A DNA stretch of 64,000 nt from a virus (IMGVR_UViG_3300032299_001015:20402-84401), one strand, 5' to 3'. Numbered from the stretch's first letter, positions 5,372 to 64,000 are shown. The notes: generated by a model from the sequence alone, not told the origin. Program-made: numbers and translations.

Positions 5372-6259
5372 CTACTTATTCCCTCCTTCTTTTGCCTTGC
5401 CCCATATAGCCTCATCAGATGAGTTAGTCTGAACCCATTCTTTTTTCCATGTGTCACCATTGTATGTATATCTAGCAATGGCTACATAAAAAATAAAATT
5501 TTCTTTATCGTTAATAGTAAAGTTAGATGAGTAAGATTTCTGACCACGATATTTTATCACAGCATCTCTATTTGGGGGATTTTTGTCATTCACTTCATTA
5601 TCATCAACCATCAACTTTCTTTTAACCCCAGCGCTATTATTTCCTTTAAATCTTTTATAGGCAAATATAGGAATATCTTCCATCATCCCGCCTTTTTTTG
5701 GACCAGGAAGAACTTCAGTAACGAGTCCATCTAAAACTTCTTTTGGAATACTTACTGTATATTTTCTTGTTTTTACAGATCCAGTAATTTCTTCTAAAGA
5801 TCCTGATGCATTGCCAGAGGCTTGAGTTGGTTGAAAAGAATTACTTACCCTTAAAAATATATAGCGAGCATCTTGATTAGTATCTTTAATTACCTTAAAA
5901 TTTCTGTTATTTAATTGAGCAAGTTTGGGATCTGATGATACCAGATTTATTGTTTCTCCTGGTTGTAACTCATTGGCCTGCTTTGCATTGTTTAGTAAAA
6001 TTTTTAATTTATAGAAACTGCCGCCAATATTTGCACCTTTTGCATATTTAGAAAAACCATAGTTTCCTTTTGTTTTTTCTCTCTCTGGCCCTTTTTCATT
6101 TTTTAGAGTAATGTTTTCTATTCTACTTAATAGAGGCGCAGCATTTGGAGTATCAAAATCGAACTCCATGTTTTTTCCATATCCAAAAAATGACATTTCT
6201 ACTCTAAATGTAATTTTTTTATTAGGGTCAAGATTCTTGTCTATGCTTAGGCTGCTCAT
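5372..6259 (-). CDS. hypothetical protein (tail region)
   Basis: 295-aa ORF coupled to neighbours. Confidence 0.6.
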   Translation of the reverse strand: MSSLSIDKNLDPNKKITFRVEMSFFGYGKNMEFDFDTPNAAPLLSRIENITLKNEKGPEREKTKGNYGFSKYAKGANIGGSFYKLKILLNNAKQANELQPGETINLVSSDPKLAQLNNRNFKVIKDTNQDARYIFLRVSNSFQPTQASGNASGSLEEITGSVKTRKYTVSIPKEVLDGLVTEVLPGPKKGGMMEDIPIFAYKRFKGNNSAGVKRKLMVDDNEVNDKNPPNRDAVIKYRGQKSYSSNFTINDKENFIFYVAIARYTYNGDTWKKEWVQTNSSDEAIWGKAKEGGNK

Positions 6260-26413: not shown

Positions 26414-28654
26414 TTAGTTAAATAATTCTGCGGAACTGAGGAAGCGTCCGCCCCATAATGATTTCTTCATTACGGGTTGCTCTGGGATACTGGATTCCAG
26501 TTCACCAGACTTCTTCATGGCCGTCTCTTCCTCAACGGACTCTACGCGGGTAGCGATTTCAGTCGCGGCGGAATTGAGATCGGATAAACTTTTGGTAACC
26601 TCTTCATACTTGGCTTGTAGTTGTCCAATTTTTTCATCGACTGCTTTAGCAAGTTCGACTACTGCACTGGAAATCTTGTCAAGTGATTCAGTATTTGTTT
26701 CAGTGGACTTGGTAATTGTCTCTTCTACGAAGGACTTAACCTCGCCAAGGGCCTTTTCCATATCGAAAACGTCAGAGGTGGTGTCCTCGGAAACTTCAGC
26801 CTCAACACCATCGGACTTAGCCATTGCAAGGGCTTCCGTAACTACGTCCTCTACAGTTTCTTCTACCTCAAACGTAACTTCTTCAGAAGCCTCGTTTGCA
26901 GCCTCGGCGGTGTCAAGTTCTTCATGGCTTGTATTTTCAGCCATTTCAACACCTCCTTCTCTTTTTTGTACAGTCAAACTGTTTTCCTCTATTTCGTCTG
27001 ACTTTTCCGTTGACAATGGGTGACCCTTTGGCAACAAATCTGTGTCATATGGTCTATTCTTGAATTTCCCTGTTCTTACCGCCTGCAAGAAAGCATTTAC
27101 TCTTGCATACGCCCATTGTTCAGGGGAGTACTCATTTGATTTATTCATCATGGGATTGCTTTTAAATGCAGCAACCCCTCTTTCAAAAACCTGACGAATG
27201 GCATCAAACGTGACACTCTTAAAAATAACATTACCATATTTTTCATTATGCTGAGAAACTAAGGCATTTAGATGTTCTTCATCTTCTGCCGCAAGTGATT
27301 TAATAACTACTTTACTGGCTACCTTAATTTTTGTTAAGTCTGAAATATTTTTTGTTACTAGTGTATCTGTCGGACGGAATTTGTTGTCTGACTCATTGTT
27401 ATACACTCTTACTGCCGCCATAGTATTTTCTAATACATCGACACGACCCTTTACTAATTTATTATTTTCTGTAAAGGCAACATAGTCTCCAGAAACAATA
27501 TCTCCTGCTTCTTTCTTGTATTTAATCTTTTTCTTTTTAGATGGACGGGGGATACCACTAGGAAGACCCTGTTGGGCATTACGATTAGGAGTTACTTCAT
27601 TAGTAACAGTTTCTTTTCTTACGCCCTCATCATCCATATCATCTTCTACATCATCTTCCATGTCTTCATGATGCATTTTATCAAGGGAGGATATTCTTCT
27701 AAGAGTACTCATTTTGTGACCGACGCGAGTGTCTGATGCCGCCCAGCCTTCTGCACCTTTACGATAAACTCTAATAAGTACCGCTGGATCTCCCTCTTCT
27801 GCATTAATAGTAAAATCTGAGTCGGGGACATTAATGGAGCCAGAACGGGCAATTCTTTCTACTTTACCTCTAGCCGTTCCGCCGCTTGAATTCCATGAAA
27901 CAAAGTCTCCTACACTTAAAGATTCTGCTTTAATGAGGGCATCAACAAGTTTACCCATCTCTTGATTTTTATTAACGTCTGATGATTCTACCCAACCAAT
28001 TTCAATCATTTCTGACTTACATACTGGACATTTGAATGTGTCTGATTTTTCAGTTAATGCAATTTTATCTGTGCTGCACCAGAATACATTTTCAGTAGAG
28101 AATTCAGTAGCAATGCCTGAGGTGATAAGTTCATCCCCAAGTTTTTGAATAGAAAGAATATTAGCAAATTGATTGGCGGGGGAATCGACTAAGGATAGTT
28201 CCATAAGTTCGTATTCTTTTACAACTCTTACCCCTGGATATTCTTTACCGTCATCCATTTTTGTTTCGTAGTCTACAATTCTGCCACCGATTGAAAATCC
28301 TGTAAGTGTGCCGTCTAGAACCATTTGCCAGATATTTTCAGCACCTTTAGAAATATATGCATCAACAAAGATTCCGCTGTACATTTTTCCAGATTCCTTG
28401 TCATAGAAAGTATTCTCTCTAAATGAAACCACTTTTCCAGCAGGAATTGGTTGGTGCATTAAACGCACATTTCCTCGGAAATTTTCAAATGCTTTACGAG
28501 AAGCCTCTGTTAATAAAACATCACCCTGGCGATCTACATTGTCCAGGGTGGCAAATCCACTAACTATTCTACGCTCTTCATCGATTTTAGCGATGGGCAT
28601 AGTGAGACGAACATTGTCTCCGTCTACGTCAAAATGTGCTTTATTAATAATCAT
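26414..28654 (-). CDS. prohead protease fused to accessory domains and C-terminal scaffold
   Basis: SGFAT.DNVDRQGD..MHQ..GFSIGG..ELSLVDSPANQ protease motifs; acidic coiled-coil C-terminus. Confidence 0.9.
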   Translation of the reverse strand: MIINKAHFDVDGDNVRLTMPIAKIDEERRIVSGFATLDNVDRQGDVLLTEASRKAFENFRGNVRLMHQPIPAGKVVSFRENTFYDKESGKMYSGIFVDAYISKGAENIWQMVLDGTLTGFSIGGRIVDYETKMDDGKEYPGVRVVKEYELMELSLVDSPANQFANILSIQKLGDELITSGIATEFSTENVFWCSTDKIALTEKSDTFKCPVCKSEMIEIGWVESSDVNKNQEMGKLVDALIKAESLSVGDFVSWNSSGGTARGKVERIARSGSINVPDSDFTINAEEGDPAVLIRVYRKGAEGWAASDTRVGHKMSTLRRISSLDKMHHEDMEDDVEDDMDDEGVRKETVTNEVTPNRNAQQGLPSGIPRPSKKKKIKYKKEAGDIVSGDYVAFTENNKLVKGRVDVLENTMAAVRVYNNESDNKFRPTDTLVTKNISDLTKIKVASKVVIKSLAAEDEEHLNALVSQHNEKYGNVIFKSVTFDAIRQVFERGVAAFKSNPMMNKSNEYSPEQWAYARVNAFLQAVRTGKFKNRPYDTDLLPKGHPLSTEKSDEIEENSLTVQKREGGVEMAENTSHEELDTAEAANEASEEVTFEVEETVEDVVTEALAMAKSDGVEAEVSEDTTSDVFDMEKALGEVKSFVEETITKSTETNTESLDKISSAVVELAKAVDEKIGQLQAKYEEVTKSLSDLNSAATEIATRVESVEEETAMKKSGELESSIPEQPVMKKSLWGGRFLSSAELFN

Positions 28655-28684: not shown

Positions 28685-30310
28685 TTAATTTTGCTGCCTA
28701 CCTTCTCCTTGTGTCGCCCGTCCTGTTTCATCTATGTCTGGGGCGTTAGAAGATCTATTTTGGTCTCTTACTCTATTGCGAGTTGTCTGAGCCGTTTGCT
28801 CTGCTCTTTGTTGAGCATTAAGAACAACTGGCTCATCACCACTAGGAAGTGTAGACATTCCTAGTCTTTCTCTTACTTCATTGGGAACAATTACTTGCAT
28901 TCTCAAATAGCGCTCGTCAATCTTAGATCTAGTTTCTTCATCAGTAAGAGTAAGTTCATTAAATTCAAATTTGAATGCGTCTGTTTTTTCAGCAATGATC
29001 CTATTGATTTTCTTTTCAAGGGCATCCTGTGCTGGGCGACATACTTGCTCCTTGAATGTTCTATCTGATTCTCTTGCTGCCGCCAAACCAATACCGTCCG
29101 TAGCACCAACCTTTGAGGCAGGAACGCGGTGAGCCATAAGGATTTCATCCTTATTCATCTTCTTATAGTTATTGAATGATGAGTCTTGAATATTAGTTTC
29201 AATTGGCTCCATCTTCATTTCTACCTTATTATCTGGTGTATCTCCAGGGATAGGAATGATAGCGGTTCTATGGGACTGTCCGCGCAGATTACCTTGAAAA
29301 AATTCAAATAATCTTTCTTCCGCTGCGCGGCTCATCTTTGCACCCTTAAGCCAGAAAATATAGCGGGGGACAGCCTTGTTCTCAAAATACTCTAGATTAA
29401 AGCGAGAGGCAAATTCATTTCCTGCCATTGCATTCTTTGCCGCCACAATTGCAGGTAGTCCATAGTAAGTATTTGTTGGAGTGTAATTCTTAATATGAAT
29501 TATTTCGTTTGGTCTAGGGTCGGTGGTAATAGGATTCTTTTCTTCACCTTGGAAATTACGGAAGAATACAGCCTTACCGTTAACAATTTGAACAAATCCG
29601 TCACGGAGGCGACGTACTCTCATCGTAGGAGCAGGGATATGACCAATGTAACCAATTTCTCCAGTTGTCTTTCTACCTATTTCAATGTACCCGTTTCCTG
29701 TTGATTCAGCATCAATATAGGCTTTCATAAGTGTCATAGTAAAGGTATCATCGTCATTTCTTGTTTCTAGCCAGTCAACAATGCGGTGCTTTTGACGAGC
29801 AAGGTTTCTTCTTACTCTCCCAAGTTCTTCTTCACTACTAATAGACTCAAGTCTCTCCATAACGTTAATTGTTGGAACAAGATCGTACCCAAGTCCAACA
29901 ATATTTGCTACTTTAGCGTTGATGGCTGAATAGTTTGCAGCGGAAAGTTCATAAATTTTAGCAAGTGCCGCCTGATTGTAAAGAGGCTCAACAACATCAA
30001 AGATGCCGTAACCGTACTTATCTGGAATGATTTGCTTAGAGGTAGCCCCATCACCAGAGTACATATTGTCTTCAGCGGTTACTATTTCTCCGCCAGCAGT
30101 AATTAATGACTTGCTAATTTTTCTACGAGCAGAACGCTTAAAGTTTTGAGAGAGTCCGTTTAACGACAAAATATCGTCAGCATCCTGACGAAAGTCATCT
30201 TTTTCTGAAGCAATAAAGGATTCTTGACCTATAGACTTGCTAAGGTTTACTTCATTGATCCAAAGATCTTCTGGTTCTTGCTGCATCTTTCCATGCTCCC
30301 GTATCTCCAT
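28685..30310 (-). CDS. portal protein
   Basis: TGNGYIEIGR..EIIHIKNY..YYGLP..FENKAVP..EILMAHRVP..PNEVRERLG. Confidence 0.92.
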   Translation of the reverse strand: MEIREHGKMQQEPEDLWINEVNLSKSIGQESFIASEKDDFRQDADDILSLNGLSQNFKRSARRKISKSLITAGGEIVTAEDNMYSGDGATSKQIIPDKYGYGIFDVVEPLYNQAALAKIYELSAANYSAINAKVANIVGLGYDLVPTINVMERLESISSEEELGRVRRNLARQKHRIVDWLETRNDDDTFTMTLMKAYIDAESTGNGYIEIGRKTTGEIGYIGHIPAPTMRVRRLRDGFVQIVNGKAVFFRNFQGEEKNPITTDPRPNEIIHIKNYTPTNTYYGLPAIVAAKNAMAGNEFASRFNLEYFENKAVPRYIFWLKGAKMSRAAEERLFEFFQGNLRGQSHRTAIIPIPGDTPDNKVEMKMEPIETNIQDSSFNNYKKMNKDEILMAHRVPASKVGATDGIGLAAARESDRTFKEQVCRPAQDALEKKINRIIAEKTDAFKFEFNELTLTDEETRSKIDERYLRMQVIVPNEVRERLGMSTLPSGDEPVVLNAQQRAEQTAQTTRNRVRDQNRSSNAPDIDETGRATQGEGRQQN

Positions 30311-30596: not shown

Positions 30597-31445
30597 TTAA
30601 GTGTTATTTGGCTGTATTCTGTTCACATATGAAGCAATTTTTACCCTAGCAGGGCTAATTGTGAACGACGCACTAGACTTTGCAAAGAATGTATTTGACA
30701 AATACTGACCATAGAGAACTTTAAATATATCTCCAACAGATGCACTTACTATAGATAAATTAGATGATGCTGTAAGTTCATACACCTGATTATCTGCTAG
30801 AGATAAAACTTTAGACCCTGGAATTAGTCCAACGGTGTCTACATAAAGATTATCATTAGTCATCAAAGACGCTGAAACAAATCTAGATAGACTGTCTTCC
30901 GTCGCTGCGTATAGATCAAAGGCGTACCTATTTTGATTCTTCAATGGCTGATAGATGACATTTGTTGATGCTGAAATAAAATTAGTTTCTATCGCATCAG
31001 TAATATTAAAAGAATAAGATGCTGAGTCAGATACACGGACCTTCATGCTGGTCCCGCCCGTAAATTCTTCATGTAAGAACGCAGCGGCAGAGGAACTAAA
31101 TGAATTATCTAAAATATAAACATTTTGTAGGTTGAAATTACTTGAACCAGAATGACCAAATCTAATAAGGAAATTATTATTGTCATAGGTCCATAACTTA
31201 TTGTCAAAGGATAATGTCAAGTGCGCCCATTGTTGGGACGGCAGAACTGATGCAGTATATCCATTGACATATATAGATGTTGAGGCGGTATTGATTCTTA
31301 CCGATCCGTTCAAATTATTGACACTTGCAGAAAATAGCAATTCAGAAGCGGCGGAGGAAGAAAAAATTTCCAATAACTTATACGTCTTATTTTCACTATC
31401 ATTAAGACGTATAAAAGCACCGACTGATCCTAAATATTTAAGCAT
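30597..31445 (-). CDS. putative virion protein (LamG-like fragment), SAS/TAS-rich
   Basis: IYVNG..QWAHLTLSF; nine [ST]AS motifs. Confidence 0.55.
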   Translation of the reverse strand: MLKYLGSVGAFIRLNDSENKTYKLLEIFSSSAASELLFSASVNNLNGSVRINTASTSIYVNGYTASVLPSQQWAHLTLSFDNKLWTYDNNNFLIRFGHSGSSNFNLQNVYILDNSFSSSAAAFLHEEFTGGTSMKVRVSDSASYSFNITDAIETNFISASTNVIYQPLKNQNRYAFDLYAATEDSLSRFVSASLMTNDNLYVDTVGLIPGSKVLSLADNQVYELTASSNLSIVSASVGDIFKVLYGQYLSNTFFAKSSASFTISPARVKIASYVNRIQPNNT

Positions 31446-35695: not shown

Positions 35696-38600
35696 CTACT
35701 CTAGGCCAATTATATCATTTACAGTTGATGCAGATACAGGAATTGTGACGGTAGTCCATATAGTTAAATCAGTAGACGAATATACAGCATTAGTTCCTTG
35801 AATTTGATAGGTGCTGCCAAATTTTGCCATTTTTTGTAGGGAATCATTAATTAAAGAATAGGGCAAAGAAGTTCTTAATTTTCCTGTGTTTCCTCCTGCA
35901 ATCCATAGGCCGTTGCCGTAGGCTACGGAGCGGATTAAGGTAGTTCCAAAGTTAGAAGTTTGGGTTGTCCAGGTCACGCCATCGGTGGAGGTGCGAAGTT
36001 GCCCTTGCTCTGCTGATGCTATCCATATGCCATTGCCATAGGCTATGGAGTGGATGGTGGTGTTGCCAAAGTTAGAGTTTTGGGTGGTCCAGGCAACACC
36101 ATTAGTGGAGGTTCTTAGTTGTCCTGCAACGCCTCCTGCTATCCATAGGCCGTTGCCGTAGGCTACGGAGCGGATGCTGGTGCTACCAAAGTTAGAGGTT
36201 TGGGTTGCCCAGGTTATGGTGTCGGTGGACGTACGGATTTGGCCTGTGTATCCGCCTGCTATCCATAGACCGTTGCCATAGGCTACGGATTGGATTTGGG
36301 TGTTGCCAAAGTTAGAAACTACTGATACCCAGGTTGTATTATCTGTAGATGTTGAAATATTTCCTAAAGTAGTTACTATCACCCACCTATTACTATTATG
36401 TGACACAGATGTAATACCGTTTGTAGTTAATCTATCTTCTCCGTCCCAGGTTACGCCATCGGGGGAGGTACGGAGTTGACCTGTGTAGCCTCCTGCAATC
36501 CATAGGCCGTTGCCGTAGGCGACGGAGAGGATCATGCTGTTGCCAAAGTTAGAAGTTCGGGTAGTCCAGGTCACGCCATCGGTGGAGGTGCGGATTTGGC
36601 CCGTTAATCCGCCTGCTATCCATAAGCCGTTGCCATAGGCTACGGAGCGGATGTTGGTGTTGCCAAAGTTAGAAGTTCGGGTTGTCCAGGTAGTGCCATT
36701 GGTGGAGGTACGGAGGGTGCCTGTGTATCCTCCTGCAATCCATAGGCCGTTGCCATAGGCTACGGAGAGGATAGCGGTACCGCCAAAGTTAGAAGTTCGG
36801 GTAGTCCAGGTCACGCCATCGGTGGAGGTTCTCATTTGGCTATCGCTGCCTGACACTATCCATAGGCCGTTGCCATAGGCTACGGAGAAAATGGTGTTGG
36901 TAGAGCCAAAGTTAGAGGTTCGGCTAGTCCAGGTAGTGCCATCGGTGGAGGTTCTCAATTGGCCTCCGCTACTTCCTGCTATCCATAGGCCGTTGCCATA
37001 GGCTACGGAGTAGATAGGATTGCTCCCAATAAAGCCAGAAGTTTGGGTAGTCCAAGTAACGCCATTGGTGGAAGTGCGGATTTGGGCACCTTCCCCTACT
37101 GCTATCCATAGGCCGTTGCCATAGGCTACGGAGCGGATGTTGGTAGCGCCAAAGTTGGAGGTTTGGGTAGTCCAGGTTGTGCCATTAGTGGAGGTGCGGA
37201 TTTGGCCTGTTAATCCGCCTGCTATCCATAGACCGTTGCCATAGGCTACGGAGTAGATTGCGGTGGTACCAAAGTTAGATGCTATTCCACTAGTTCCAAT
37301 ATTAAAGTTTACTGTATTCCAAGTAATGGTGTCTGTGGAAGTTCTACCCTGACCACTATACGCACCTGCTATCCATATGCCATTGCCATAGGCTACGGAG
37401 TAGACGCTGACGCTGCCAAAGTTAGAGTTTTGCGTAGTCCAGGTTACGGTATCGGTGGAGGTGCGGATTTGACCTGCACTTCCTACTGCTACCCATAGAC
37501 CGTTGTTATATCCTACGGAGAATATTACACTATTTCCAAAGTTAGAGGTTTGCTCTTTCCAAGTAGCACCTTGAATTCCCCCAGATGAAGAACTAGCGAA
37601 TACTTGAGTGACCCATGTACTTCCATCTGTTGACCGCCAAAATGTTCCAGAATTTACAACGGCAAAAGCGGTGGAAGCAGTAGAAAACATTCCATTTACC
37701 GCCGTTGGTCCAGATACTGTTGTCCAAGTTTCTGCATTTGTTGAACTTAAAGTAGATGATGCTGATGAAAAGGCGTAAAAAGAATTATTGAAAGAATGTA
37801 ATTTATAGTTATTTGGCAATATTGATGAGTTTTCAGAGGTGCGGAGTTGTCCGGTGCTGCCTCCTGCTATCCATAGGCCGTTGCCATAGGCTACGGAGTT
37901 GATGTTAGTGGCACCAAAGTTGGAGGTTTGGGTAGTCCAGGTTACGCCATCGGTGGAGGTACGGATTTGTCCTGTGTATCCGCCTGCTATCCATAGGCCG
38001 TTGCCATAGGCGACGGAGAGGATGTTAGTGCTGCCAAAGTTGGAGGTTTGGGTGGTCCAGGTTGTGCCATTGGTGGACGTACGGATTTGTCCTGCGTAGC
38101 CCCCTGCAATCCATAAACCGTTGCCGTAGGCTACGGAGGCGATGGTGGTGTTTAAGTTAGAGGTTTGCGTGGTCCAAGTGACGCCATTGGTGGAGGTTCT
38201 TAATTGGCCTGCGTTACCTCCTGCTATCCATAAGCCGCTGCTATAGGCTACGGAGCGGATGATATTGAAACCAAAGTTAGAGGTTTGTGTTGTCCAGGTT
38301 ACGCCATTGGTGGAGGTGCGGATTTCTCCGTCGCCTCCTCCTGCAATCCATAGGCCGTTGCCATAGGCTACGGAAAAGATTCCGAGGATGTTGGTGATAC
38401 TAAAGTTAGAGGTTTGGGTAGTCCAGGTTACGCCATCGGTGGAGGTTCTCAATTGGCCGCCGGAGGCTCCTGCAATCCATAGGCCATTGCCATAGGCTAA
38501 GGAGCGGATGGTGGTGTTGCCAAAGTTGGAGGTTTGGGTTGTCCAGGTGACGCCATTGGTAGAGGTTCTCAGTTGTCCTGAAAGACCTCCTGCAATCCAT

Positions 38601-55937: not shown

Positions 55938-56378
55938 TTACCTTTTAAGGTAATCTATAGCGCTTTGCAAAAATTTTATATTGTCTTTAAACTGACCCAA
56001 TCCATTATTGCAATGTCTACAAAGAAGTCCACGAATCTTTCCTGTGGCATGACAATGATCAACATGTGCAGATTTATTAATGTCAGAATTACATATAGCA
56101 CAAGAATAACTTTGAGTCTCTAATAAGTTAAAAAATTCTTCCTTAGTTATTCCATAGAATAACTTTCTTCTTGTCCATAAAGATGAGTCTTTAGATGCCT
56201 GGGGATTTAACTCCCGCCACTTTTTATTCCTACTGAGCGAACATTCTTTGCAATATGCAGACATAAGATCTTTTCTTCCTTTATCTTGGTAGAAATCATT
56301 TCTATTTTTTACAGAGTTGCATAAACTACATTTCTTACTTTGCCTATTTGGATTAATTGTCATATAACTATTATACAC
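55938..56378 (-). CDS. endonuclease VII-domain (homing-type) nuclease
   Basis: CAIC..HVDHCHATGKIRGLLCRHCNNGLG; probable leaderless start at MTIN. Confidence 0.85.
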   Translation of the reverse strand: MYNSYMTINPNRQSKKCSLCNSVKNRNDFYQDKGRKDLMSAYCKECSLSRNKKWRELNPQASKDSSLWTRRKLFYGITKEEFFNLLETQSYSCAICNSDINKSAHVDHCHATGKIRGLLCRHCNNGLGQFKDNIKFLQSAIDYLKR

Positions 56379-56726
56379 AAAAAGATTAACACTTTTATTT
56401 TGAACAAATGTTAGTGGCTAGCGAATTTGTATAATACACGATTTTAAGTAAGATTTTCCCAATTAAGTAGTGCGCCCATACGTCATGGCATATGTCAAGC
56501 CGACACGCCGACATTATGCGGATTGTTATAAAGGTGTCTCATTCCAGCATAATGCGGATTCTATAGTTATCATCCTGTTACCTAGGCATGTCCGATTTGT
56601 ATGCGTTTCTAGCGTCTCAATGTCAGACCCCCATGCTAGGATCTACCTATAACTGAATATCTCCTAGGCAAATAAGCCCCATGAGGGATGAGCCCTAGGC
56701 CACACCGTAAGATAGAAAGGCTAGAC

Positions 56727-56921
56727 ATGAATACTCAGGCATACAAGGGTATTGCCCCTCGCACTACCGCCGCGCTTCGTGCGCGTCGCTCATTGGTCGC
56801 TCGTATTGGAAGCGATGCTGTCGCTGCACAGGATGCGGAGCGTGTGGACTACTACCGTGCGCTGATCGCGCAGGCTAAGGCTGCAGAGCGTAGACTGTCA
56901 GACCCTAGTGATAAGGTGTAA
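56727..56921 (+). CDS. hypothetical early protein
   Basis: GAAAGG SD; MNTQAYKG...LSDPSDKV. Confidence 0.7.
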   Translation: MNTQAYKGIAPRTTAALRARRSLVARIGSDAVAAQDAERVDYYRALIAQAKAAERRLSDPSDKV

Positions 56922-56923
56922 TC

Positions 56924-57019
56924 ATGAGAACATTCCTGCAGCACGTTACTTCATTCGTCATCATTAGCGGTATCCTTACCGCTATGGCTATCGTTGGTGG
57001 AATAGAGGGAGGCTTCTAA
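56924..57019 (+). CDS. small membrane peptide (31 aa), leaderless
   Basis: MRTFLQHVTSFVIISGILTAMAIVGGIEGGF. Confidence 0.6.
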   Translation: MRTFLQHVTSFVIISGILTAMAIVGGIEGGF

Positions 57020-57276
57020 TGATTACCCGCGCAGAAGGTATCGTCAATGCTAAGGCTAAGATCGCGCATCCTATGGCCGATGAGGTTTCTATCGCTATGG
57101 GGCAGGGAGCGTATGCACGCTTTCCCTATTCCGTCGAACTTGCATTCTTCAAGAATGGAGATTGGGTAACTGAGCCTCTGCCAGAGTTTGCTGCACTCTA
57201 CTCTAATGAGGTCTACCCCTATGTCCCGCTGATCTACTTCGCACAGTTCCTTGAGAACTACGGCGCGGGAGGGTAG
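57019..57276 (+). CDS. hypothetical protein
   Basis: TAATG coupling. Confidence 0.65.
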   Translation: MITRAEGIVNAKAKIAHPMADEVSIAMGQGAYARFPYSVELAFFKNGDWVTEPLPEFAALYSNEVYPYVPLIYFAQFLENYGAGG

Positions 57277-57281
57277 TAGCC

Positions 57282-57308
57282 AAAAACCCTTATAAATAAA
57301 GGGTTTTT
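57282..57308. terminator. bidirectional intrinsic terminator
   Basis: AAAAACCCTT..AAGGGTTTTT. Confidence 0.65.
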
Positions 57309-57517
57309 CAGTACTTGACAAATCGCTTCTGCGGGGCCGGGCCGCGAATCGGACATATCACCTAGGTTACGATTACGTTACGATGATCACGAATTACGGC
57401 ATGTCGATTTGACAGACATATTGGACATATCACCGTTACCAACCTGTTATGAAAGTTGTCCGTTTTGTATACATTCTGGATTAGGTAATGTCAGACCCCT
57501 AGTGTAGAGTCAGAGAC

Positions 57518-57676
57518 ATGAACAAGCAAAGAGTATGGAAGTACCAAGTAACCCTTACCGATCACCGCTCCTTCGTGGTGTCTGTCTTCTCCGCTGACCG
57601 TGATCCTTCCACGGTTGTCCGTCCCGAATTGCGGGACATGATCCTTGACGTAACTACCCTTGAGAGTGTAGGTTAG
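57518..57676 (+). CDS. hypothetical protein (52 aa), leaderless
   Basis: ATG 7 nt after TAGAGT. Confidence 0.65.
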   Translation: MNKQRVWKYQVTLTDHRSFVVSVFSADRDPSTVVRPELRDMILDVTTLESVG

Positions 57677-57680
57677 TACC

Positions 57681-57965
57681 ATGATTGATTCAGTAGATCG
57701 TATCGTCACCACTCCGATTAGAGAGTGCCCTCCACTAGTTGAGGCCGTTGTCCTTACGGATAGCCCTATCCTAAATACTTTTTGGGTCACCATCGAACAA
57801 GATGGGCCTACCGATTACTTTGTAATCACTGAGGTAATTAGTGGATATGAGGAGATTGTATCTGGCTCTACTGTAGTAAAGTGGCTCAAGCCTGAGGACA
57901 TGAATGACCCCGTGATTCAGGCGGAATTGGTAGCGGGACTGGCTTCTATGGGATTGGAATTCTAA
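57681..57965 (+). CDS. hypothetical protein
   Basis: TTGACG-N18-TAGGTT-N6-ATG. Confidence 0.65.
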   Translation: MIDSVDRIVTTPIRECPPLVEAVVLTDSPILNTFWVTIEQDGPTDYFVITEVISGYEEIVSGSTVVKWLKPEDMNDPVIQAELVAGLASMGLEF

Positions 57966-58147
57966 TGTTTGATCTTCACGACTCCCGCTCAGGATTGACG
58001 TATCGCTGGAATCAATCCCACGGCGTGAGTATCTATAACCGCGAATGGGAAGAGATCGACTACTTCGAATTTGGATACATGGCAGATGGATCGCGCCCTA
58101 CCTTTGTAGAGTTTTGCGCGGCGGTTTCTAGGAGGACTAGTGAGTAA
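57965..58147 (+). CDS. hypothetical protein
   Basis: TAATG coupling. Confidence 0.6.
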   Translation: MFDLHDSRSGLTYRWNQSHGVSIYNREWEEIDYFEFGYMADGSRPTFVEFCAAVSRRTSE

Positions 58148-58337
58148 AGTAATAGAACGCCGTCCATTCGATATCAATATGACAATGCAATGGAATGACA
58201 TTCAGGAATTGCTCACACGATGCAAGCGCATGTGGGCATGTGCTGAGAATCCTGGCGACTTCCAAACTTTGGAAGAATTGGAGAAGTCTCTACACATTCT
58301 TGCGGAGAATATTCGAACTAGACTTGACAAATCCTGA
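58140..58337 (+). CDS. hypothetical protein
   Basis: AGGAGG SD; ends inside a TTGACAA arm. Confidence 0.6.
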   Translation: MSKVIERRPFDINMTMQWNDIQELLTRCKRMWACAENPGDFQTLEELEKSLHILAENIRTRLDKS

Positions 58338-58441
58338 AAGACGGGCCGGGCCGCGTTTTGAAAATGTTATATAAATAATTACGTTACGACTTGACAAGTA
58401 ACGGGAATTTTGATAGGTTCGACCTGTCGAAAGGAGATATC

Positions 58442-58567
58442 ATGGGTTCTGTCATTATTCCCGTCGCGTGTGACTGGCACGCAGTCTACTCCATCCATGA
58501 GGATGGCGTATGGTATGGCCTCTACTGCGAGGAGTGTGATGAAACCTACCCGCCTGTGGCGGAGTAG
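58442..58567 (+). CDS. small Cys/His protein (41 aa)
   Basis: AAGGAG SD; CDWH..CEEC. Confidence 0.6.
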   Translation: MGSVIIPVACDWHAVYSIHEDGVWYGLYCEECDETYPPVAE

Positions 58568-58629
58568 GCCCCGGCTCGCTGTCAGACCCCTGTGCTAGTC
58601 TTACGATACACATACGAAAGGACACGAAA

Positions 58630-58761
58630 ATGGCTCGCTGTGAAGATTACCCGTGCTGTGGACACACCGATGGCCTTGGCTGCAACTATGCCCCCGATAT
58701 GGAGGCAATCTATGCCTCTGTCCAGCGCCGTCTTGATGACGACTACTACGACTACTACTGA
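58630..58761 (+). CDS. small Cys-rich acidic protein (43 aa)
   Basis: GAAAGGA SD; MARCEDYPCCGH..DDDYYDYY. Confidence 0.65.
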   Translation: MARCEDYPCCGHTDGLGCNYAPDMEAIYASVQRRLDDDYYDYY

Positions 58762-58874
58762 AAGGCCCGGCCTGAAAATCTTCACATTGTCAAGTCTTAC
58801 GATGTGAAATACGACACACACGAAAACGGTCACGGGGATGCCTGAGTGTCAGACCCCTATGATAAAGTCATCCT

Positions 58875-59021
58875 ATGAGTGAAAGTACAGAGATGCATTA
58901 TTACCCCGCCGACGAGGATTGGTTCGCTCGTCACCATGACGAGATGGAGGCTATGAAGTTGGGCCTTGACCTTGACCCTAACCCTTGGCTGTCAGACCCC
59001 CATGATAAGGTGAAGCCATGA
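58875..59021 (+). CDS. hypothetical protein (48 aa), leaderless
   Basis: ATG 6 nt after TAAAGT; ends LSDPHDKVKP. Confidence 0.55.
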   Translation: MSESTEMHYYPADEDWFARHHDEMEAMKLGLDLDPNPWLSDPHDKVKP

Positions 59022-59155
59022 CCAACTACTACCGCGTGTTCTACTTGAACCGATTCAAGAAGGCATTCAATACCCGCGATAAGGCTCTGAAGTATGTTTC
59101 CTCTCAGGACGTACCTGAAGACTATGAGATTCTAGATTGGAGTGATGAACTGTGA
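59018..59155 (+). CDS. hypothetical protein (45 aa), leaderless
   Basis: ATG 6 nt after TAAGGT. Confidence 0.6.
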   Translation: MTNYYRVFYLNRFKKAFNTRDKALKYVSSQDVPEDYEILDWSDEL

Positions 59156-59307
59156 AGTGCAATAAGTTTGGCGTAGAGTTTGAGAAGGCATGGCTAGATA
59201 ACTACTACATGCTTGGCGACCATGCTTTCGACTATGCGCGATGCATGTATCTGGATGACGGCACTCTGATTGTCGATGGGGTGCGCTATGAGGAGGTGCC
59301 TTTCTGA
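59152..59307 (+). CDS. hypothetical protein (51 aa)
   Basis: GTGA and TGATG overlaps with neighbours. Confidence 0.55.
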   Translation: MKCNKFGVEFEKAWLDNYYMLGDHAFDYARCMYLDDGTLIVDGVRYEEVPF

Positions 59308-59522
59308 TGTGGCAGGATGGTGCAGCGTGCAAGGATGCGGATAGCAATCTTTTTCTTAGTGGTGTGACCTCGCGTGTAGAACAGGCTAAGAAGATTTGTG
59401 CAACGTGCAGCGTTGTGCAGGAGTGTCTAGAGTTTGCAATTCGCAATGAGGATTTTGAGCCTCATGTCTATGGTGGAATGACAGGTCAAGAAAGACGGCG
59501 TGTTTCCTTGACAAATGCCTGA
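59307..59522 (+). CDS. whiB: WhiB-family Fe-S transcription factor
   Basis: WQDGAAC..LF..AKKICATCSVVQECLEFA..VYGGMT.QERR. Confidence 0.92.
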   Translation: MWQDGAACKDADSNLFLSGVTSRVEQAKKICATCSVVQECLEFAIRNEDFEPHVYGGMTGQERRRVSLTNA

Positions 59523-59613
59523 AAGTGGGCCGGGCTGCAATTCCAAGAATACTCATAGATTTACGACCTCTTACGATTTGACACGGGGATCACGGTCATG
59601 ATAGGATCACTCT

Positions 59614-59760
59614 ATGAGTAATCGTGTCAGCCCCCGCCGTAGCACGGAGCATAATCGTATCGTTGTTGAGCGTCGTCGCTCTAATGCCGCGCAGCCTCAT
59701 AAGAATAAGGCCAAGTATTCGCGCAAGGACAAGCATCGTAACCGTTTCGTTACCGACTGA
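59614..59760 (+). CDS. small very basic protein (48 aa), leaderless
   Basis: RRRSNAAQPHKNKAKYSRKDKHRNR; TTGACA-N18-TAGGAT-N6-ATG. Confidence 0.7.
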   Translation: MSNRVSPRRSTEHNRIVVERRRSNAAQPHKNKAKYSRKDKHRNRFVTD

Positions 59761-59809
59761 TCCCAATATTCCCCCTTTCAATGTCAGACCCTAGTGCTAG
59801 GATCATTCC

Positions 59810-60367
59810 ATGATTACAGTTACCGCCCCTGAGGGCACACTCGCATACGCTACCTACGCCGCTCGCTTTGAGAGCCTTATCATGACCGCCACCCTTTCGC
59901 AGACTGAGGCTGCTAGCGTCTGGTACCATGACGCCGCTGCCGTTGCCTCTGAGGTTGCTCGTAACCTTGGCACCTCGCTTGAGGTTGGCGCGTCTATCGT
60001 TGCAGCATTCTCCCCGCGTGAGCGCTGGTCCACTAACGTCGCTAAGGCTATCGCGTACTCGCTTGGCTCGCGTCCCGCTGGCCTTGGCAATAATCTCCGC
60101 ATGGCTGACGCATCCGTAGCGGCAGGCTTTGATGCGCTCAAGGGTCAGAAGACTAACGCTTTCGCTCGCGCTATCGCAGGCGACACTAACGCGGTTGTCA
60201 TTGACGTTTGGATGATGCGTGCGGCAGGCATGGAGACTGACTCTCCTAATAAGACTCAATACGCTCTACTGTCTGAGGCTGTTGAGTCCGTTGCTGCACA
60301 GTTTGGAATCACACCGCGCACCGCGCAGGCTCTTATTTGGATCATCGTGCGAGGGGGTGCGGCGTGA
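59810..60367 (+). CDS. HhH-glycosylase-like phage protein (DUF7178-like)
   Basis: WY..AAFSPR..W..N..KT.AF..VVIDVWM..Y..TPRTAQALIW. Confidence 0.6.
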   Translation: MITVTAPEGTLAYATYAARFESLIMTATLSQTEAASVWYHDAAAVASEVARNLGTSLEVGASIVAAFSPRERWSTNVAKAIAYSLGSRPAGLGNNLRMADASVAAGFDALKGQKTNAFARAIAGDTNAVVIDVWMMRAAGMETDSPNKTQYALLSEAVESVAAQFGITPRTAQALIWIIVRGGAA

Positions 60368-60424
60368 ACGATATCACGCTAGAGAACTTTCGGGAGATGC
60401 TGCGCGATTTTGTGGGAGTGTGAT

Positions 60425-60502
60425 ATGGAGATTTTTCTCGTAACTATTGCGCTATTTCTAGGTATTGGAATCCTGATAGGCCTACTTGACAAAAGGCCCT
60501 AA
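60425..60502 (+). CDS. small membrane peptide (25 aa)
   Basis: MEIFLVTIALFLGIGILIGLLDKRP. Confidence 0.45.
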   Translation: MEIFLVTIALFLGIGILIGLLDKRP

Positions 60503-60671
60503 AGGGCCCGGCCCGCAAATCCTAATCTTGTCAAGTATTTACGACGACATTTAAGAAGTCACTGGAAATTGTCACTGAAATGTTATCTAAATAATCTAAT
60601 AGAAATCCTTGAGACTGTCAGACCTAGAGTGTATAGTTCTTCTATAAGTTCAATCAACTAAGGAGATACAT

Positions 60672-61667
60672 ATGGCACACGCAGTAGAGGTTGGCGCTAA
60701 CGGCGAGCAGGCTTTTGCTTCCTTCCGCGAACCCGCATGGCATGGTCTTGGTACCGTGTTCTTTGAGGAGAAGTCCACCCGCGAGATGCTGGATGCGGCT
60801 TACCTTTCCAACTGGAACGTCCGCCTTGAGGCCGTTCCTTACCCTTCCACCTACAATGTCATCACGCCTTCCTACATGGTACTGCGTGACAATCCCTTTG
60901 ACCAGGGTACTGACGTTCTCGCTACCGTTGGCGAGCGTTACCACGTTCTTCAGAACGAGGATCTTTTCGACTTTGGTGATGCGCTGCTTGACGGTGGTCG
61001 CTGGGAGACTGCTGGCTCTATTCGTCAGGGTCGCGTTGTGTTCGGTTCGCTTGCGCTTGAGCGTAAGACTGTTCTTGATCCCAAGGGCGTGTCGGATGTT
61101 GTGAAGTCCTACCTTCTTGTCCACACCTCGCATGACGGTTCTACCGCTGTGCAGGCTTCCATCACTCCCGTCCGCGTTGTGTGCCAGAACACTCTCAACA
61201 TGGCTCTTCAGGGTGTGAAGCAGTCCTTCAAGATTCGTCACACGCAGACCGTAGGCGGTAAGGTCATGGCTGCACGCGAGGCTCTTTCTCTCGCCAATCA
61301 GTACCTCGACACCTTCGACAAGGAGGCTCAGGCTCTCATCGCCAAGGAGATCACCAAGGCTAAGTTCGATGCCATTCTTGAGGCTGTCTACCCGCGTCCT
61401 GAGGCTGATGCTAAGGGTGCTGTCAAGAAGTGGGAGACTAAGGTCGATCTGCTGGAGGAGATTTACTCTTCCGATACCACCAACATGATCGCAGGCACCG
61501 CGTGGGGTGCGTTCAATGCTCTCACGGAGCGTCTGGACTGGTTCCGCAAGGGTCGTGGCGAGCGGGGTGCTGAGAATGTTCTCGCTGCCGCTAGCGGTTT
61601 CGATCCTGTCACCAATGCGGAGAAGGGTCGCATCCTGAAGGCTGTCAAGGAGATCGCCTTCGCGTAA
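60672..61667 (+). CDS. DUF932/DUF945 (LGT_TIGR03299-like) protein
   Basis: MAH..PAWHGLG..YHVLQNE..ETAGS..SHDGS..TPVRVVCQNTL..GTAWGAFNALTE. Confidence 0.88.
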   Translation: MAHAVEVGANGEQAFASFREPAWHGLGTVFFEEKSTREMLDAAYLSNWNVRLEAVPYPSTYNVITPSYMVLRDNPFDQGTDVLATVGERYHVLQNEDLFDFGDALLDGGRWETAGSIRQGRVVFGSLALERKTVLDPKGVSDVVKSYLLVHTSHDGSTAVQASITPVRVVCQNTLNMALQGVKQSFKIRHTQTVGGKVMAAREALSLANQYLDTFDKEAQALIAKEITKAKFDAILEAVYPRPEADAKGAVKKWETKVDLLEEIYSSDTTNMIAGTAWGAFNALTERLDWFRKGRGERGAENVLAAASGFDPVTNAEKGRILKAVKEIAFA

Positions 61668-61704
61668 GGCTATCCTGACATGGATGCCATGTCGTGGTAT
61701 CCTA

Positions 61705-61732
61705 ACATCCTGGGCATGATGTAAAACTGCCC
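61705..61732 (+). ncRNA. H-type pseudoknot motif, copy 1
   Basis: ACATC-CT-GGGCA-T-GATGT-AAAAC-TGCCC. Confidence 0.6.
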
Positions 61733-61735
61733 CGA

Positions 61736-61803
61736 TCCACCCGCGCTGGGCGCAGACGGGCCTCCAAAACCTGTCGGGCAGAGTTCGATCCTCTGGGGTG
61801 GGG
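61736..61803 (+). tRNA. atypical compact tRNA-Trp(CCA)-like RNA
   Basis: TCCACCC/GGGTGGG acceptor; GCGC-TGG-GCGC mini D arm; CTCCAAA loop; CAGAG-TTCGATC-CTCTG T arm; discriminator G. Confidence 0.65.
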
Positions 61804-61974
61804 CTTGACAAATCTAATAAAAACGGGCCGGGATAAATAATTCATTTTGTCAATATTTACGATTACGATTAAGAAATCACAGGAATATTTCACAGGAATT
61901 TTTAAGAATGCACCCTTGACGATCACGGCAATATCGTGTACTTTAGAGGCATAACTGAAGAGGGGAGGAAATAG

Positions 61975-62184
61975 ATGGGTGAATACCTAGTTGTTGATAA
62001 GTTATATGGGTTCTCTATAGAACATAATGATATTCTCCGCACCGCCGACGGAAATGAGATAGTCGTTTCCTTTGTAGATTCGGTGGAAGGAGGGTATGAT
62101 ATTCACTATAAAGACCTTGACGGAGAGGAAGATATCTACCACCTCCCCGAAGATGACATGATCGACCTACTCATTCTAGAATAA
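61975..62184 (+). CDS. hypothetical acidic protein
   Basis: GGAGG SD. Confidence 0.65.
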   Translation: MGEYLVVDKLYGFSIEHNDILRTADGNEIVVSFVDSVEGGYDIHYKDLDGEEDIYHLPEDDMIDLLILE

Positions 62185-62194
62185 GGAGAAACAA

Positions 62195-62350
62195 ATGGCT
62201 AAGAAGAAGGAAAACAAGTTCTCATATCTTGAGACTTGGAACACTCGCTACGGGGTTCAGACTCGTATTGTCACCCGCATTGATGGCAAGTTCGTTGATT
62301 CAACACCCGCACTTGAGACACTCCGCAAGGGCGTCCCTGCTGGTCGCTGA
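62195..62350 (+). CDS. hypothetical protein (51 aa)
   Basis: AAGGAG SD; MAKKKENKFSYLETW... Confidence 0.65.
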   Translation: MAKKKENKFSYLETWNTRYGVQTRIVTRIDGKFVDSTPALETLRKGVPAGR

Positions 62351-62358
62351 CCAGTTGG

Positions 62359-62389
62359 GCGAACCTGGGCATGTTCGCTAAAACTGCCC
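62359..62389 (+). ncRNA. H-type pseudoknot motif, copy 2
   Basis: GCGAAC-CT-GGGCA-T-GTTCGC-TAAAAC-TGCCC. Confidence 0.6.
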
Positions 62390-62467
62390 AATGCGGTTGA
62401 GATCCTAGTAAGTTGTGGGATAGGTTATGTAGAGGATCTGCGATGACACTCCCCACACACCGCATAA

Positions 62468-62548
62468 GCCTGAGTGGTGGAATTGGCAGACACGCACGAC
62501 TCAAAATCGTGTTCCATTGGAGTGTGGGTTCAAGTCCCACCTTAGGCA
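62468..62548 (+). tRNA. tRNA-Leu(CAA)
   Basis: Class II cloverleaf; CACGA-CTCAAAA-TCGTG. Confidence 0.92.
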
Positions 62549-62616
62549 CATAAAGTCTTGACTAATGTCAGACCCTCATGATAGAGTTTCACTACCTACT
62601 ACAGAAAGGCACTCTC

Positions 62617-63006
62617 ATGGGTGACCGCGCTAATTTCGGACTTCGACAGGTCGATGGCAACATCATCTACGTCTACGGACATTGGGCAGGCGAGGGTATG
62701 CTTGCTAGGTTTGCTAATGCTCTTGACCGTGTTCAGGATGCTGGACGCATTGACGACCAGGCTTATGCTAATCGCATCATCATTTCACGTTTGGTTGGCG
62801 ATGCATGGTCTAGTGACTATAACTGGGGTGTTACCGTCAATTACCTTACAGACAACGAGCATAAGGTTCCTGTCTTTGACTTTGCATTCAAGACCGTTAC
62901 TCTCTATGACTATGACTGGACGGCGGGAGTGCTGACTGATATCATTGTAGAGTTCTCGCTGAACGAGTTCATCAACAAGTACGCTAATACCTTGATGGAG
63001 GTGTGA
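62617..63006 (+). CDS. hypothetical protein (MGDRANF..YVYGHWAG)
   Basis: GAAAGG SD downstream of a promoter box. Confidence 0.7.
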   Translation: MGDRANFGLRQVDGNIIYVYGHWAGEGMLARFANALDRVQDAGRIDDQAYANRIIISRLVGDAWSSDYNWGVTVNYLTDNEHKVPVFDFAFKTVTLYDYDWTAGVLTDIIVEFSLNEFINKYANTLMEV

Positions 63007-63007
63007 C

Positions 63008-63430
63008 ATGATTGATCCTAGTATGACTGACATTCATCCATTCCCGCCCACGATGCAGGAATTGGAGCGGCAGGTCATCGAACTTCAGAGCAATCTGGAT
63101 TCTATGACCGCTGACCGTGATTTCTGGCAGGGTAAGGCCCATGAGCGGAAGTTGATGATTGACAACCTTGAGGAATACATCAAGGATCAGTTTGACTACA
63201 TTGATGAGAATGTATCTCAGAGCATTGTCGATATCTTTGGTTTCAATATCACCAAGGACTACGATGTGACAATTACCGTCACATTCTCTGGTATTGTGAC
63301 TGCTCCTCTCAATTTCGACATGGATAGCCTTGAGGATTCTCTGAATGCTAGTCTTGATGTGTCCTACTACAGCGATCTAGAGTCTGATTTCTCAGAGGAT
63401 CATATGGAGATTGACTGGACAAAGAGTTAG
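63008..63430 (+). CDS. hypothetical acidic coiled-coil protein
   Basis: GGAGG SD. Confidence 0.65.
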   Translation: MIDPSMTDIHPFPPTMQELERQVIELQSNLDSMTADRDFWQGKAHERKLMIDNLEEYIKDQFDYIDENVSQSIVDIFGFNITKDYDVTITVTFSGIVTAPLNFDMDSLEDSLNASLDVSYYSDLESDFSEDHMEIDWTKS

Positions 63431-63437
63431 TAAGGCC

Positions 63438-63513
63438 GCTCCCATCGTCTAGAGGCCAAGGACGCCGCCCTTTCAAGGCGGTAGCACGGGTTCGAATCCC
63501 GTTGGGAGTACCA
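63438..63513 (+). tRNA. tRNA-Glu(UUC), CCA encoded
   Basis: CCGCC-CTTTCAA-GGCGG; canonical T arm. Confidence 0.92.
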
Positions 63514-63747
63514 CCCTAGGGGGAATGTGCGGCACCCGCCACCAACCCCACCATGCCGCGCGCCCCCTAGGGTCCATCTGGGCGGAGGAGAGTGACGGTC
63601 TCCTCTCCTCCGCTCTCCCAATACCCGGCCCCAAACTACCCTATTTGTCAAATCATATTTACGATCATCTTACGAAAGTCACAGGAATTTTCGCTGGAAT
63701 ATGTCAGACCCCTCTGCTACGATTTATCTATACATCTAGGAGGAGAT

Positions 63748-63888
63748 ATGAGCAATCCATACGTTGTAGAGGTAACGTGCATGGTTCTTGTCCATGCCGA
63801 AGACCTTGATTCTGCCACCGACTCTGCTATCGCAGAGTTGGAGGAGATCGCCTTTGACATTGACGTTCTTTCCACTAAGCCCTGGTAG
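63748..63888 (+). CDS. hypothetical protein (46 aa)
   Basis: AGGAGG SD. Confidence 0.6.
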   Translation: MSNPYVVEVTCMVLVHAEDLDSATDSAIAELEEIAFDIDVLSTKPW

Positions 63889-63896
63889 GAGTAAAC

Positions 63897-64000
63897 ATGG
63901 CAACCATCACATTCTCAGTAGAACTTATCTACGAGGGAACTGGTCACTTTATGGATTTTGAATATGACTATGAGACTTGGGATGATATGACCCAAGAGGA
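63897..64000 (+). CDS. hypothetical protein (partial)
   Basis: AGGAG SD; open to window end. Confidence 0.55.
   Translation, partial: MATITFSVELIYEGTGHFMDFEYDYETWDDMTQE

Follow-up and report, generated by a model that had tools for sequence, protein, structure and literature searches.

Why does a phage genome that has lost nearly all of its CCGG tetranucleotides keep eight of them in the gaps between its early genes? The question arises in the IMG/VR virus record IMGVR_UViG_3300032299_001015 (84,401 bp; CheckV completeness estimate 69%), of which the right-hand 64 kb were analysed and are referred to as the window (64,000 nucleotides, positions counted from its first letter). The phage under study is labelled G000, and six whole relatives that were fetched are labelled G001 to G006. 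The eight sites lie in the GC-rich early region of the window (Table 1), where they form the centres of a repeated intergenic module with TTGACAA and TTGTCAA arms. The initial annotation had proposed that CCGG is purged from this region except at the module cores, and that the core is probably the functional cleavage, methylation or binding point. The sequence comparisons described below support the view that the surviving CCGG mark a functionally constrained centre.

The depletion itself is pronounced and extends well beyond the early region. In the window 13 CCGG were observed versus 87.7 (standard deviation 9.1) in shuffles, and the Markov-corrected tetranucleotide test proposed with the initial annotation, when run on the 84.4-kb record, gave 13 observed versus 123.5 expected copies (Markov-2). 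AGCT is completely missing from the record, with 232 copies expected under the same model, and AGCT and CCGG are by far its two most under-represented tetranucleotides. Outside the early region 5 CCGG remain where 88-105 are expected, which corresponds to a survival ratio of 5/88.5 = 0.056, and the coding DNA of the early region contains neither CCGG nor AGCT. The purge that had been described for the GC-rich region is therefore real there, but it is not special to that region, being genome-wide and lineage-wide. The avoidance of AGCT is even stricter than that of CCGG, so that codon pairs such as NAG-CTN and AGC-TNN must be constrained, and it implies an AluI-type restriction system in the host population.

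Relatives share this pattern in part and replace it in part. A DUF932 query recovered 60 related IMG/VR loci, most of which contain 0 CCGG in 10-21 kb, and AGCT is absent from the close clade and from two further loci. In the ~100-kb genomes G001-G004, AGCT was found 0 times each versus 263-316 expected, and the observed/expected counts of CCGG were 4/84 in G001, 27/101 in G002, 26/139 in G003 and 11/77 in G004 (0.05-0.27). G005 (L035 contig, 116 kb) has normal AGCT and lacks CCGG (0/48), CGCG (0/30) and GCGC (0/75), and G006 (L037 contig, 95 kb) barely avoids CCGG (104/174) and mainly avoids GATC (101/275). Avoidance of short palindromic restriction sites in phage genomes has been described by Rusinov et al. 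2018 (PMC6286503), and the avoidance of different sites by different relatives is the pattern typical of it. The likeness includes the depletion of 4-bp palindromes under a Markov model, its occurrence in common among relatives, the lineage-specific sets of avoided sites and the lack of a phage methyltransferase: none of PF00145, PF01555 and PF02086 was found in G001-G005 (three of these assemblies are complete and circular), and G000, whose record is 69% complete, likewise lacks PF00145 and PF01555. Protection of the CCGG sites by a phage methyltransferase was rejected, as no such gene was found. The suggestion that CCGG is selected against in a restriction-like manner is thus strengthened by a depletion that is genome-wide, palindrome-specific and common to relatives, while other relatives avoid other tetranucleotides. 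The lineage is probably under restriction-type counter-selection, which is absolute for AGCT and about 20-fold for CCGG outside the modules.

Only eight CCGG occur in the early region (Table 1), as had been noted from a manual scan; the accompanying expectation of about 30 sites is a naive 1/256 figure, which is lowered to 24.8 by a dinucleotide model and to 18.6 by Markov-2. Coding and tRNA DNA of the region (5776 bp), including the DUF932 gene, holds none of them versus 18.1 expected (Poisson P=1.4e-8). All eight are found in 1765 bp of intergenic DNA, for which 6.5 would be expected without any avoidance and 0.37 at the genome-wide survival of 0.056 (P(>=8)=6e-9). The CCGG of the early region are therefore not random leftovers; coding DNA is far below its expected frequency and the localisation is significant.

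Survival of a CCGG also depends on its flanking nucleotides, as became apparent from the flank classes pooled over G000, G001, G003 and G004 (392 kb). Six of the ten NCCGGN classes are absent, namely ACCGGT, GCCGGC, CCCGGG, TCCGGA, ACCGGC/GCCGGT and ACCGGG/CCCGGT (21-50 expected each; 0/45 for TCCGGA), and 0.07-0.22 of the expected copies remain in the three classes that carry T on exactly one side. The class CCCGGC/GCCGGG is present in 25 copies versus 43 expected, each of which lies either in the centre of a module or immediately before a promoter box, and the other classes without T amount to 0 of ~170 expected. Survivors outside modules are virtually all TCCGGB/VCCGGA. This applies to the five CCGG of the window outside the early region (Table 1), three of which sit in repeated blades of propeller-repeat genes and whose orthologues in the relatives were not alignable; G002 obeys the same rule, with 25/27 sites T-flanked. 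The set of flank classes could not be matched to any single enzyme specificity. Cleavage by some CCGG enzymes is affected by the flanking context. Overlapping GGCC methylation was considered as a general shield and rejected: GGCCGG or CCGGCC is present at 7/8 sites here, but many cores of G003 and G004 do not have it. Compared with known restriction-site avoidance, the avoidance in this phage differs in being non-uniform, with one class that survives only in a repeated regulatory or junction element.

This element has a fixed geometry. TTGACAA starts 22-23 nt before CCGG at five sites, the inverted arm TTGTCAA starts 19-20 nt after CCGG at four sites, and both arms are present at two sites, which form 49-bp palindromes, so that seven of the eight CCGG lie at a fixed distance from an arm. 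TTACGA or TTACGT begins 29-34 nt after CCGG in 8/8 sites. At the centre an 8-mer is conserved, which reads GGGCCGGG or, as its complement, CCCGGCCC; 6 exact copies occur versus 0.42 expected, all of them at modules. Among the five modules with a left arm, the arm has a pairwise identity of 0.96 and the core one of 0.69, whereas the spacer reaches only 0.28; a random spacer beside a conserved core means that the core is conserved in its own right and that no whole-module homogenisation has taken place. The eight modules follow stop codons or tRNAs and precede promoters, which lie 80-250 bp downstream, and in five modules a stop codon precedes the centre by 4-9 nt. The ends of open reading frames (ORFs) extend into three left arms, in different frames, which argues for a constraint at the DNA level. 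The CCGG at 58571 had been described as lying between a stop codon and a promoter box, apart from the modules; its position was confirmed, but it is no outlier and represents a truncated module, as judged by the core-like GGCCCCGGC, TTACGA at +30 and conserved counterparts in G003 and L008.

Table 1. Early region, CCGG-bearing modules and remaining CCGG sites of the 64,000-nt window.
Feature	Position	Strand	Elements	Context
GC-rich early region	56460..64000	+	~50% GC vs 39% elsewhere	Small cassettes, every gene on the + strand
Module 1, left-arm type	57315..57372	+	TTGACAA 57315-57321; core GGGCCGGG 57334-57341 (CCGG 57337-57340); TTACGA 57367-57372	Preceded by canonical hairpin-plus-T-run terminator at 57275-57315
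Module 2, left-arm type	58324..58389	+	TTGACAA 58324-58330; core GGGCCGGG 58343-58350 (CCGG 58346); TTACGA 58384-58389	TTGACAA overlaps last codons of ORF 58140-58337
Module 3, truncated	58565..58606	+	Stop codon 58565-58567; GGCCCCGGC with CCGG 58571-58574; TTACGA 58601-58606 (+30)	TGTCAGACC promoter box from 58580 occupies the right-arm position
Module 4, right-arm type	58764..58802	+	GGCCCGGCC (CCGG 58767-58770); TTGTCAA 58787-58793; TTACGA 58797-58802	Core 6 nt past the stop of ORF 58630-58761
Module 5, left-arm type	59508..59566	+	TTGACAA 59508-59514; core GGGCCGGG (CCGG 59530-59533); TTACGA 59561-59566	TTGACAA inside last codons of WhiB gene (59307-59522)
Module 6, full 49-bp palindrome	60486..60544	+	TTGACAA 60486-60492; core CCCGGCCC (CCGG 60508-60511); TTGTCAA 60528-60534; TTACGA 60539-60544	Upstream of DUF932 cassette; synteny breakpoint vs G003, G004, G001
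Module 7, full 49-bp	61805..61868	+	TTGACAA 61805-61811; core GGGCCGGG (CCGG 61828-61831); TTGTCAA 61847-61853; TTACGA twice, 61857-61868	Directly after tRNA-Trp; synteny breakpoint
Module 8, right-arm type	63622..63675	+	Core CCCGGCCC (CCGG 63625-63628); TTGTCAA 63645-63651; TTACGA 63659-63664 and 63670-63675	Synteny breakpoint
Five non-early CCGG	2748, 35657, 37851, 38460, 39691		TCCGGT, GCCGGA, TCCGGT, GCCGGA, TCCGGC (one T flank each)	

In the relatives the module is kept as TTGACA-N36-38-TGTCAA with a length of 48-50 bp (34 distinct copies, 69 strand-specific readings), even where DUF932 identity is only 60-70%. Its self-complementary parts are the arms and the central 5-7 bp only. Since positions 7-17 pair at chance level, the module consists of two elements ~20.5 bp apart and not of one long hairpin, and an RNase III-type substrate of the latter kind was ruled out. 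Within a genome the centres are alike, but they change from genome to genome: GGGCCGGG in G000, L001, G003 and L008, GCCCGGCAC in G004, GGCGCGCGCC in L059, GCGCGG-N12-CCGCGC in G002, and the CCGG-free centres CGGTG-N4-CACCG in G001 and CGGG-N4-CCCG in L009. At the orthologous module upstream of DUF932, GCC-CGG-CCCGC of the CCGG clade is replaced by GCC-CAC-CCCGC in L004, GCC-TG-CCCCG in L007 and GCC-G-CCCCGC in L009, that is, CCGG gives way to CCCA, CCTG or CCGC, and the right arm, TTACGA and the promoter are conserved. The CCGG-free centres of sister phages, which avoid CCGG in the same way, indicate that CCGG itself is neither required by the module family nor essential to it. In 6/12 of the CCGG-free dyads the four central bases differ from CCGG by one substitution, which is no more than suggestive against the 25% expected for G/C-only tetramers.

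A centre of this kind might be an RNA or DNA hairpin, such as a terminator, an attenuator, a processing signal or a stem-loop similar to the promoter-early stem-loops (PeSLs) of T4-type phages, in which case only GC self-complementarity would matter and CCGG would be incidental. The location of five centres just behind stop codons fits such a role, as do the clean GC stems of 5-7 bp with 4-nt loops in the relatives (-8 to -17 kcal/mol), where the loops vary and the stems are kept, and the PeSL stem-loops are G-tract/C-tract terminators (PMC2839356). The centres of G000, however, fold weakly and inconsistently (0 to -10 kcal/mol) and yielded 0/8 intrinsic terminator calls, the stems within one genome are identical in sequence and show no co-variation, and many relatives have a T-tract/hairpin/A-tract order whose polarity is opposite to that of a terminator. 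The fixed spacing to sequence-invariant arms and the separate canonical or tetraloop hairpins that precede the core in several modules (57275-57315; G003) also speak against a hairpin, and this explanation is considered unlikely. A search with Rfam returned tRNAs only. A consensus scan found no sigma70 promoter at the arms, and inspection found no -10 at 16-18 nt from either arm. The RNA evidence consists of contigs from metatranscriptome or 'RNA-Seq' runs, which are short coding fragments of relatives with 88-95% identity and are blind to transcript ends; joints of such contigs at modules are weak, with short sides of 20-30 nt.

In several modules a short hairpin with a tetraloop of the UUCG, GAAA, UUCU or UAAA type directly precedes the core 8-mer on its 5' side (G003 ~29590-29620, ~30745-30780 and ~28350-28390; window 60494-60507), which suggests a separate terminator or stability hairpin ahead of the core.

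The CCGG centres might also be a historical accident, imported from phages without selection against CCGG, such as G006, and not yet purged, or renewed by a gene conversion that outpaces selection. G006 carries S-CCGG-S centres 16 nt from TTGTCAA while barely avoiding CCGG, cassettes recombine at modules, and the early regions are mosaic (DUF932 95% versus portal 56% identity between phages), all of which would allow such an import. Against it, G000, G003 and G004 have kept the cores although their backbones share only ~72-76% identity, and the dozens of new CCGG to be expected elsewhere have not appeared. G000 contains 2,219 one-step neighbours of CCGG and its backbone is ~76% identical to that of G003; by rough inference dozens of new CCGG would arise neutrally, and the presence of only 5 non-module sites implies that selection against CCGG stayed active while the core sites were kept. 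Ongoing selection together with retained cores speaks against a recent import that has not yet been purged, and the random spacer beside the core is at odds with gene conversion of whole modules. An accident of this kind is therefore very unlikely.

The modules coincide with the joints of early cassettes, as synteny with G003, G004 and G001 breaks at them. The cassette with DUF932 and tRNA-Trp (60505-61810) and the next cassette (61853-63604) occur in reversed order in all three relatives, and G001 shows one further cassette permutation. A given left half-module is followed by different right halves in close relatives; the tRNA-Trp end, for instance, leads into three different cassettes. In the clearest recombinant (L001 versus two G003 parents) the identity from both sides enters a shared GGGGCCGGGCCG of ~12 nt, and at two junctions the orientation of the core is reversed from one phage to another. 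The left (...GGGCCGG) and right (CCGGCCC...) half-modules overlap in exactly CCGG. The reordering fits, by analogy, recombination between short repeats as in the PeSLs of T4-type phages. A dedicated recombinase or HUH enzyme driving the shuffling was rejected, because serine or tyrosine recombinases and Y1 (HUH) transposases (PF00239, PF00589, PF01797) are absent from G000, G001, G003, G004 and G005; physical ends at the modules were rejected as well, the apparent direct terminal repeats being assembly overlaps of 69-127 bp.

From these joints it could be argued that CCGG itself is a catalytic target which is cut, nicked or methylated, for example by host cleavage at the joints followed by religation, so that cassettes are shuffled. 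The overlap of the half-modules in CCGG, the junction of the clearest recombinant within the shared core, the invertibility of the core between close relatives and an endonuclease VII gene adjoining the region are in keeping with this, but no methyltransferase, recombinase or HUH enzyme was found, G001 shows cassette permutations without any core CCGG, and several junctions lose homology 25-30 nt from CCGG and not at it. We regard a catalytic role of CCGG as highly improbable. The initial annotation is borne out in so far as the surviving sites mark a centre that is constrained, by the identity and copy number given above; its proposal that CCGG as such is the cleavage, methylation or binding point is weakened by the CCGG-free sister centres and the missing enzymes.

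The explanation that we favour, and hold to be probable with some reservation, combines restriction-type avoidance with a sequence-constrained and predicted protein-bound centre whose function outweighs or escapes restriction. The centre GGGCCGGG/CCCGGCCC, in either orientation, would be placed about two helical turns from TTGACAA and/or TTGTCAA, so that a DNA-binding factor could bind arms and centre from a single face of the helix; the module would be followed by TTACGA repeats and then by the promoter of the next cassette. A recognition site for such a factor is indicated by the conservation of sequence and not of structure in this phage, by uniform stems without co-variation and by the independence of orientation. 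Several points weigh against this explanation. The gene calls are ORF-based throughout, family searches gave no annotated DNA-binding, helix-turn-helix (HTH) or repressor family among the small early proteins, and no ORF tracks the core type by presence or absence across the seven genomes. The clean hairpins of the relatives' centres would also fit a role of RNA or DNA structure, and a search with the thymidylate synthase gene for the host gave best cellular matches of only ~40% from scattered phyla and no host. Moreover, a genome with 8 cleavable sites should still be restricted, and some shielding or context-resistance may be needed.

The last point makes a function that merely outweighs its cost uncomfortable and shielding attractive. 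In that case the core CCGG would be as harmful as any other but protected, either by an early-bound protein on the arms and the centre or by a G/C-clamped context that is a poor substrate; they would then be free of cost, and a strong function would not be needed. Shielding by proteins on the flanking arms had already been suggested in the initial annotation. The purging of ~110 sites with the retention of 8 cleavable ones would bring little benefit unless the 8 were protected, survival is flank-dependent elsewhere too, where only sites with one T flank leak, and the constant helical phase between arms and centre would be in keeping with a bound complex. Shielding is also made plausible by an avoidance outside modules that is as strict here as in relatives without core CCGG (0.04-0.11 in the CCGG-core clade versus 0.05 in G001). 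However, no candidate protein emerged from the family searches and the seven-genome screen, and the core CCGG has been lost from, or is missing in, G001, G002 and G005, an indication that it is costly where it is dispensable. Shielding without strong function is possible, but we give it clearly less credence than the constrained, protein-bound centre. A bolder version, which is quite unlikely, holds that at the CCGG of the cassette joints an arm-bound factor shields the site as an anti-restriction nucleoprotein complex, or that breaks by a host CCGG-endonuclease drive reshuffling; it is drawn from the overlap of the half-modules in CCGG, the crossover in the shared ~12-nt core and the flipping core orientation.

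Among known systems, the module can be compared with the PeSLs (Arbiol et al. 2010, PMC2839356; Comeau et al. 2014, PMC4122927). Both are composite motifs repeated between genes, combine a G/C-rich dyad with a TTGACA that resembles a -35 hexamer, and sit where small early cassettes meet, and in both cases relatives differ by cassette reordering and insertions or deletions with junctions in the motif. The module differs in that its arms lack a -10 at 16-18 nt, the real promoter (TGTCAGACC box and TGnTAnnnT) being located 80-250 bp downstream, in that its palindrome has a set length of 48-50 bp, with arms that do not vary and a centre specific to each lineage, in phages of an inferred actinobacterial host clade, and in that sequence, not a stable stem-loop, is what is conserved at the centre in this phage. 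Another lake actinophage carries this 50-bp palindromic module at its cassette boundaries too, with convergent TTGACA arms around GGCCCGGCAC. Taken together, the observation joins a known phenomenon, the avoidance of restriction sites, to a boundary module that resembles PeSLs and has a centre under sequence constraint in this clade.

Operator arrays of actinophages offer a second comparison. Stoperators of Cluster A mycobacteriophages resemble the modules in their many intergenic copies, which are uniform within a genome and differ between related phages. Stoperators are asymmetric 13-14-bp sites with an orientation bias, and the conserved inverted repeats (CIRs) of Streptomyces phage phiC31 are a comparable actinophage operator array. 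The module centre, in contrast, occurs in either orientation and is embedded between distant invariant arms, and no cognate repressor was found among the early proteins (record 69% complete) and no integrase or lysogeny functions are shown by these phages. Integron attC or att-like sites differ in their dependence on enzymes of which none, neither Ser/Tyr recombinase nor HUH transposase, was found in the five genomes searched.

The remaining features of the window place the modules in their genomic setting. Structural genes for a portal, a protease/capsid fusion, a 2,608-aa tape measure and tail proteins are present, and the portal is ~52% identical to those of large Streptomyces phages. The early region encodes WhiB (PF02467, E=6.5e-17), DUF7178, DUF932 and three tRNAs, and it has ten promoters with a TGTCAGACC box followed by TGnTAnnnT, several of which abut start codons. 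The box lies 2-4 nt upstream of the extended -10 at the ten sites (56622-63710), is limited to the + strand and to the early region, and is not accompanied by a -35 hexamer at the usual distance; it shares TGTCA with the right arm TGTCAA. The WhiB gene, the TGnTAnnnT promoters directly before start codons and the similarity of the portal to Streptomyces phages lead us to infer an actinobacterium as host. Near-identical sequence is contained in freshwater and lake metagenomes from many studies, so that the host would be a freshwater one; no near-identical phage was found in the INPHARED collection, and the phage looks like a virulent freshwater phage. Compared with positions 1-56459, the early region is mosaic: its nucleotide identity between phages is 80-95% (DUF932: 95-96% in amino acids), while the backbones of these phages can be aligned at only ~70-76% and their portals share 56% identity (G000 vs G001). 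The recombination endonuclease VII gene (55938-56378, - strand; PF02945, E=1.5e-25) lies exactly on the boundary between AT-rich and GC-rich DNA and adjoins the array of palindromic modules.

Further repeats with CCGG were observed in the relatives. A module beyond the end of the window has a CCGG core followed by two TTATCCACA 9-mers, which correspond to the DnaA-box consensus (L001:14225-14300; G003, L006 contig, ~37050-37130; G004 ~5640-5700; several in L021), and it may be a candidate replication origin or DnaA-titrating site in the early region. L021 has a CCGG-bearing intergenic repeat of its own, AAAATTTCCGGRG, at nine sites, and every CCGG of this 18.9-kb locus falls in the motif; in L012 the CCGG-bearing intergenic modules have GTTGCA..TGCAAC arms.

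Avoidance of restriction sites is usually a bulk statistic, and here it acts as a natural mutagenesis screen, in which the few remaining CCGG pinpoint, at base-pair resolution, the constrained centre of a boundary module in abundant uncultured lake actinophages. The flank rule is a testable fingerprint of the restriction enzymes of the host, and relatives that avoid different sites are a ready-made series for inferring the restriction-modification repertoires of hosts. If the sites are shielded or used as break points, anti-restriction, early regulation and modular genome evolution would be linked in one 50-bp element; otherwise, the module centre would be sequence-specific in this clade and freely replaceable by CCGG-free dyads in sister phages.

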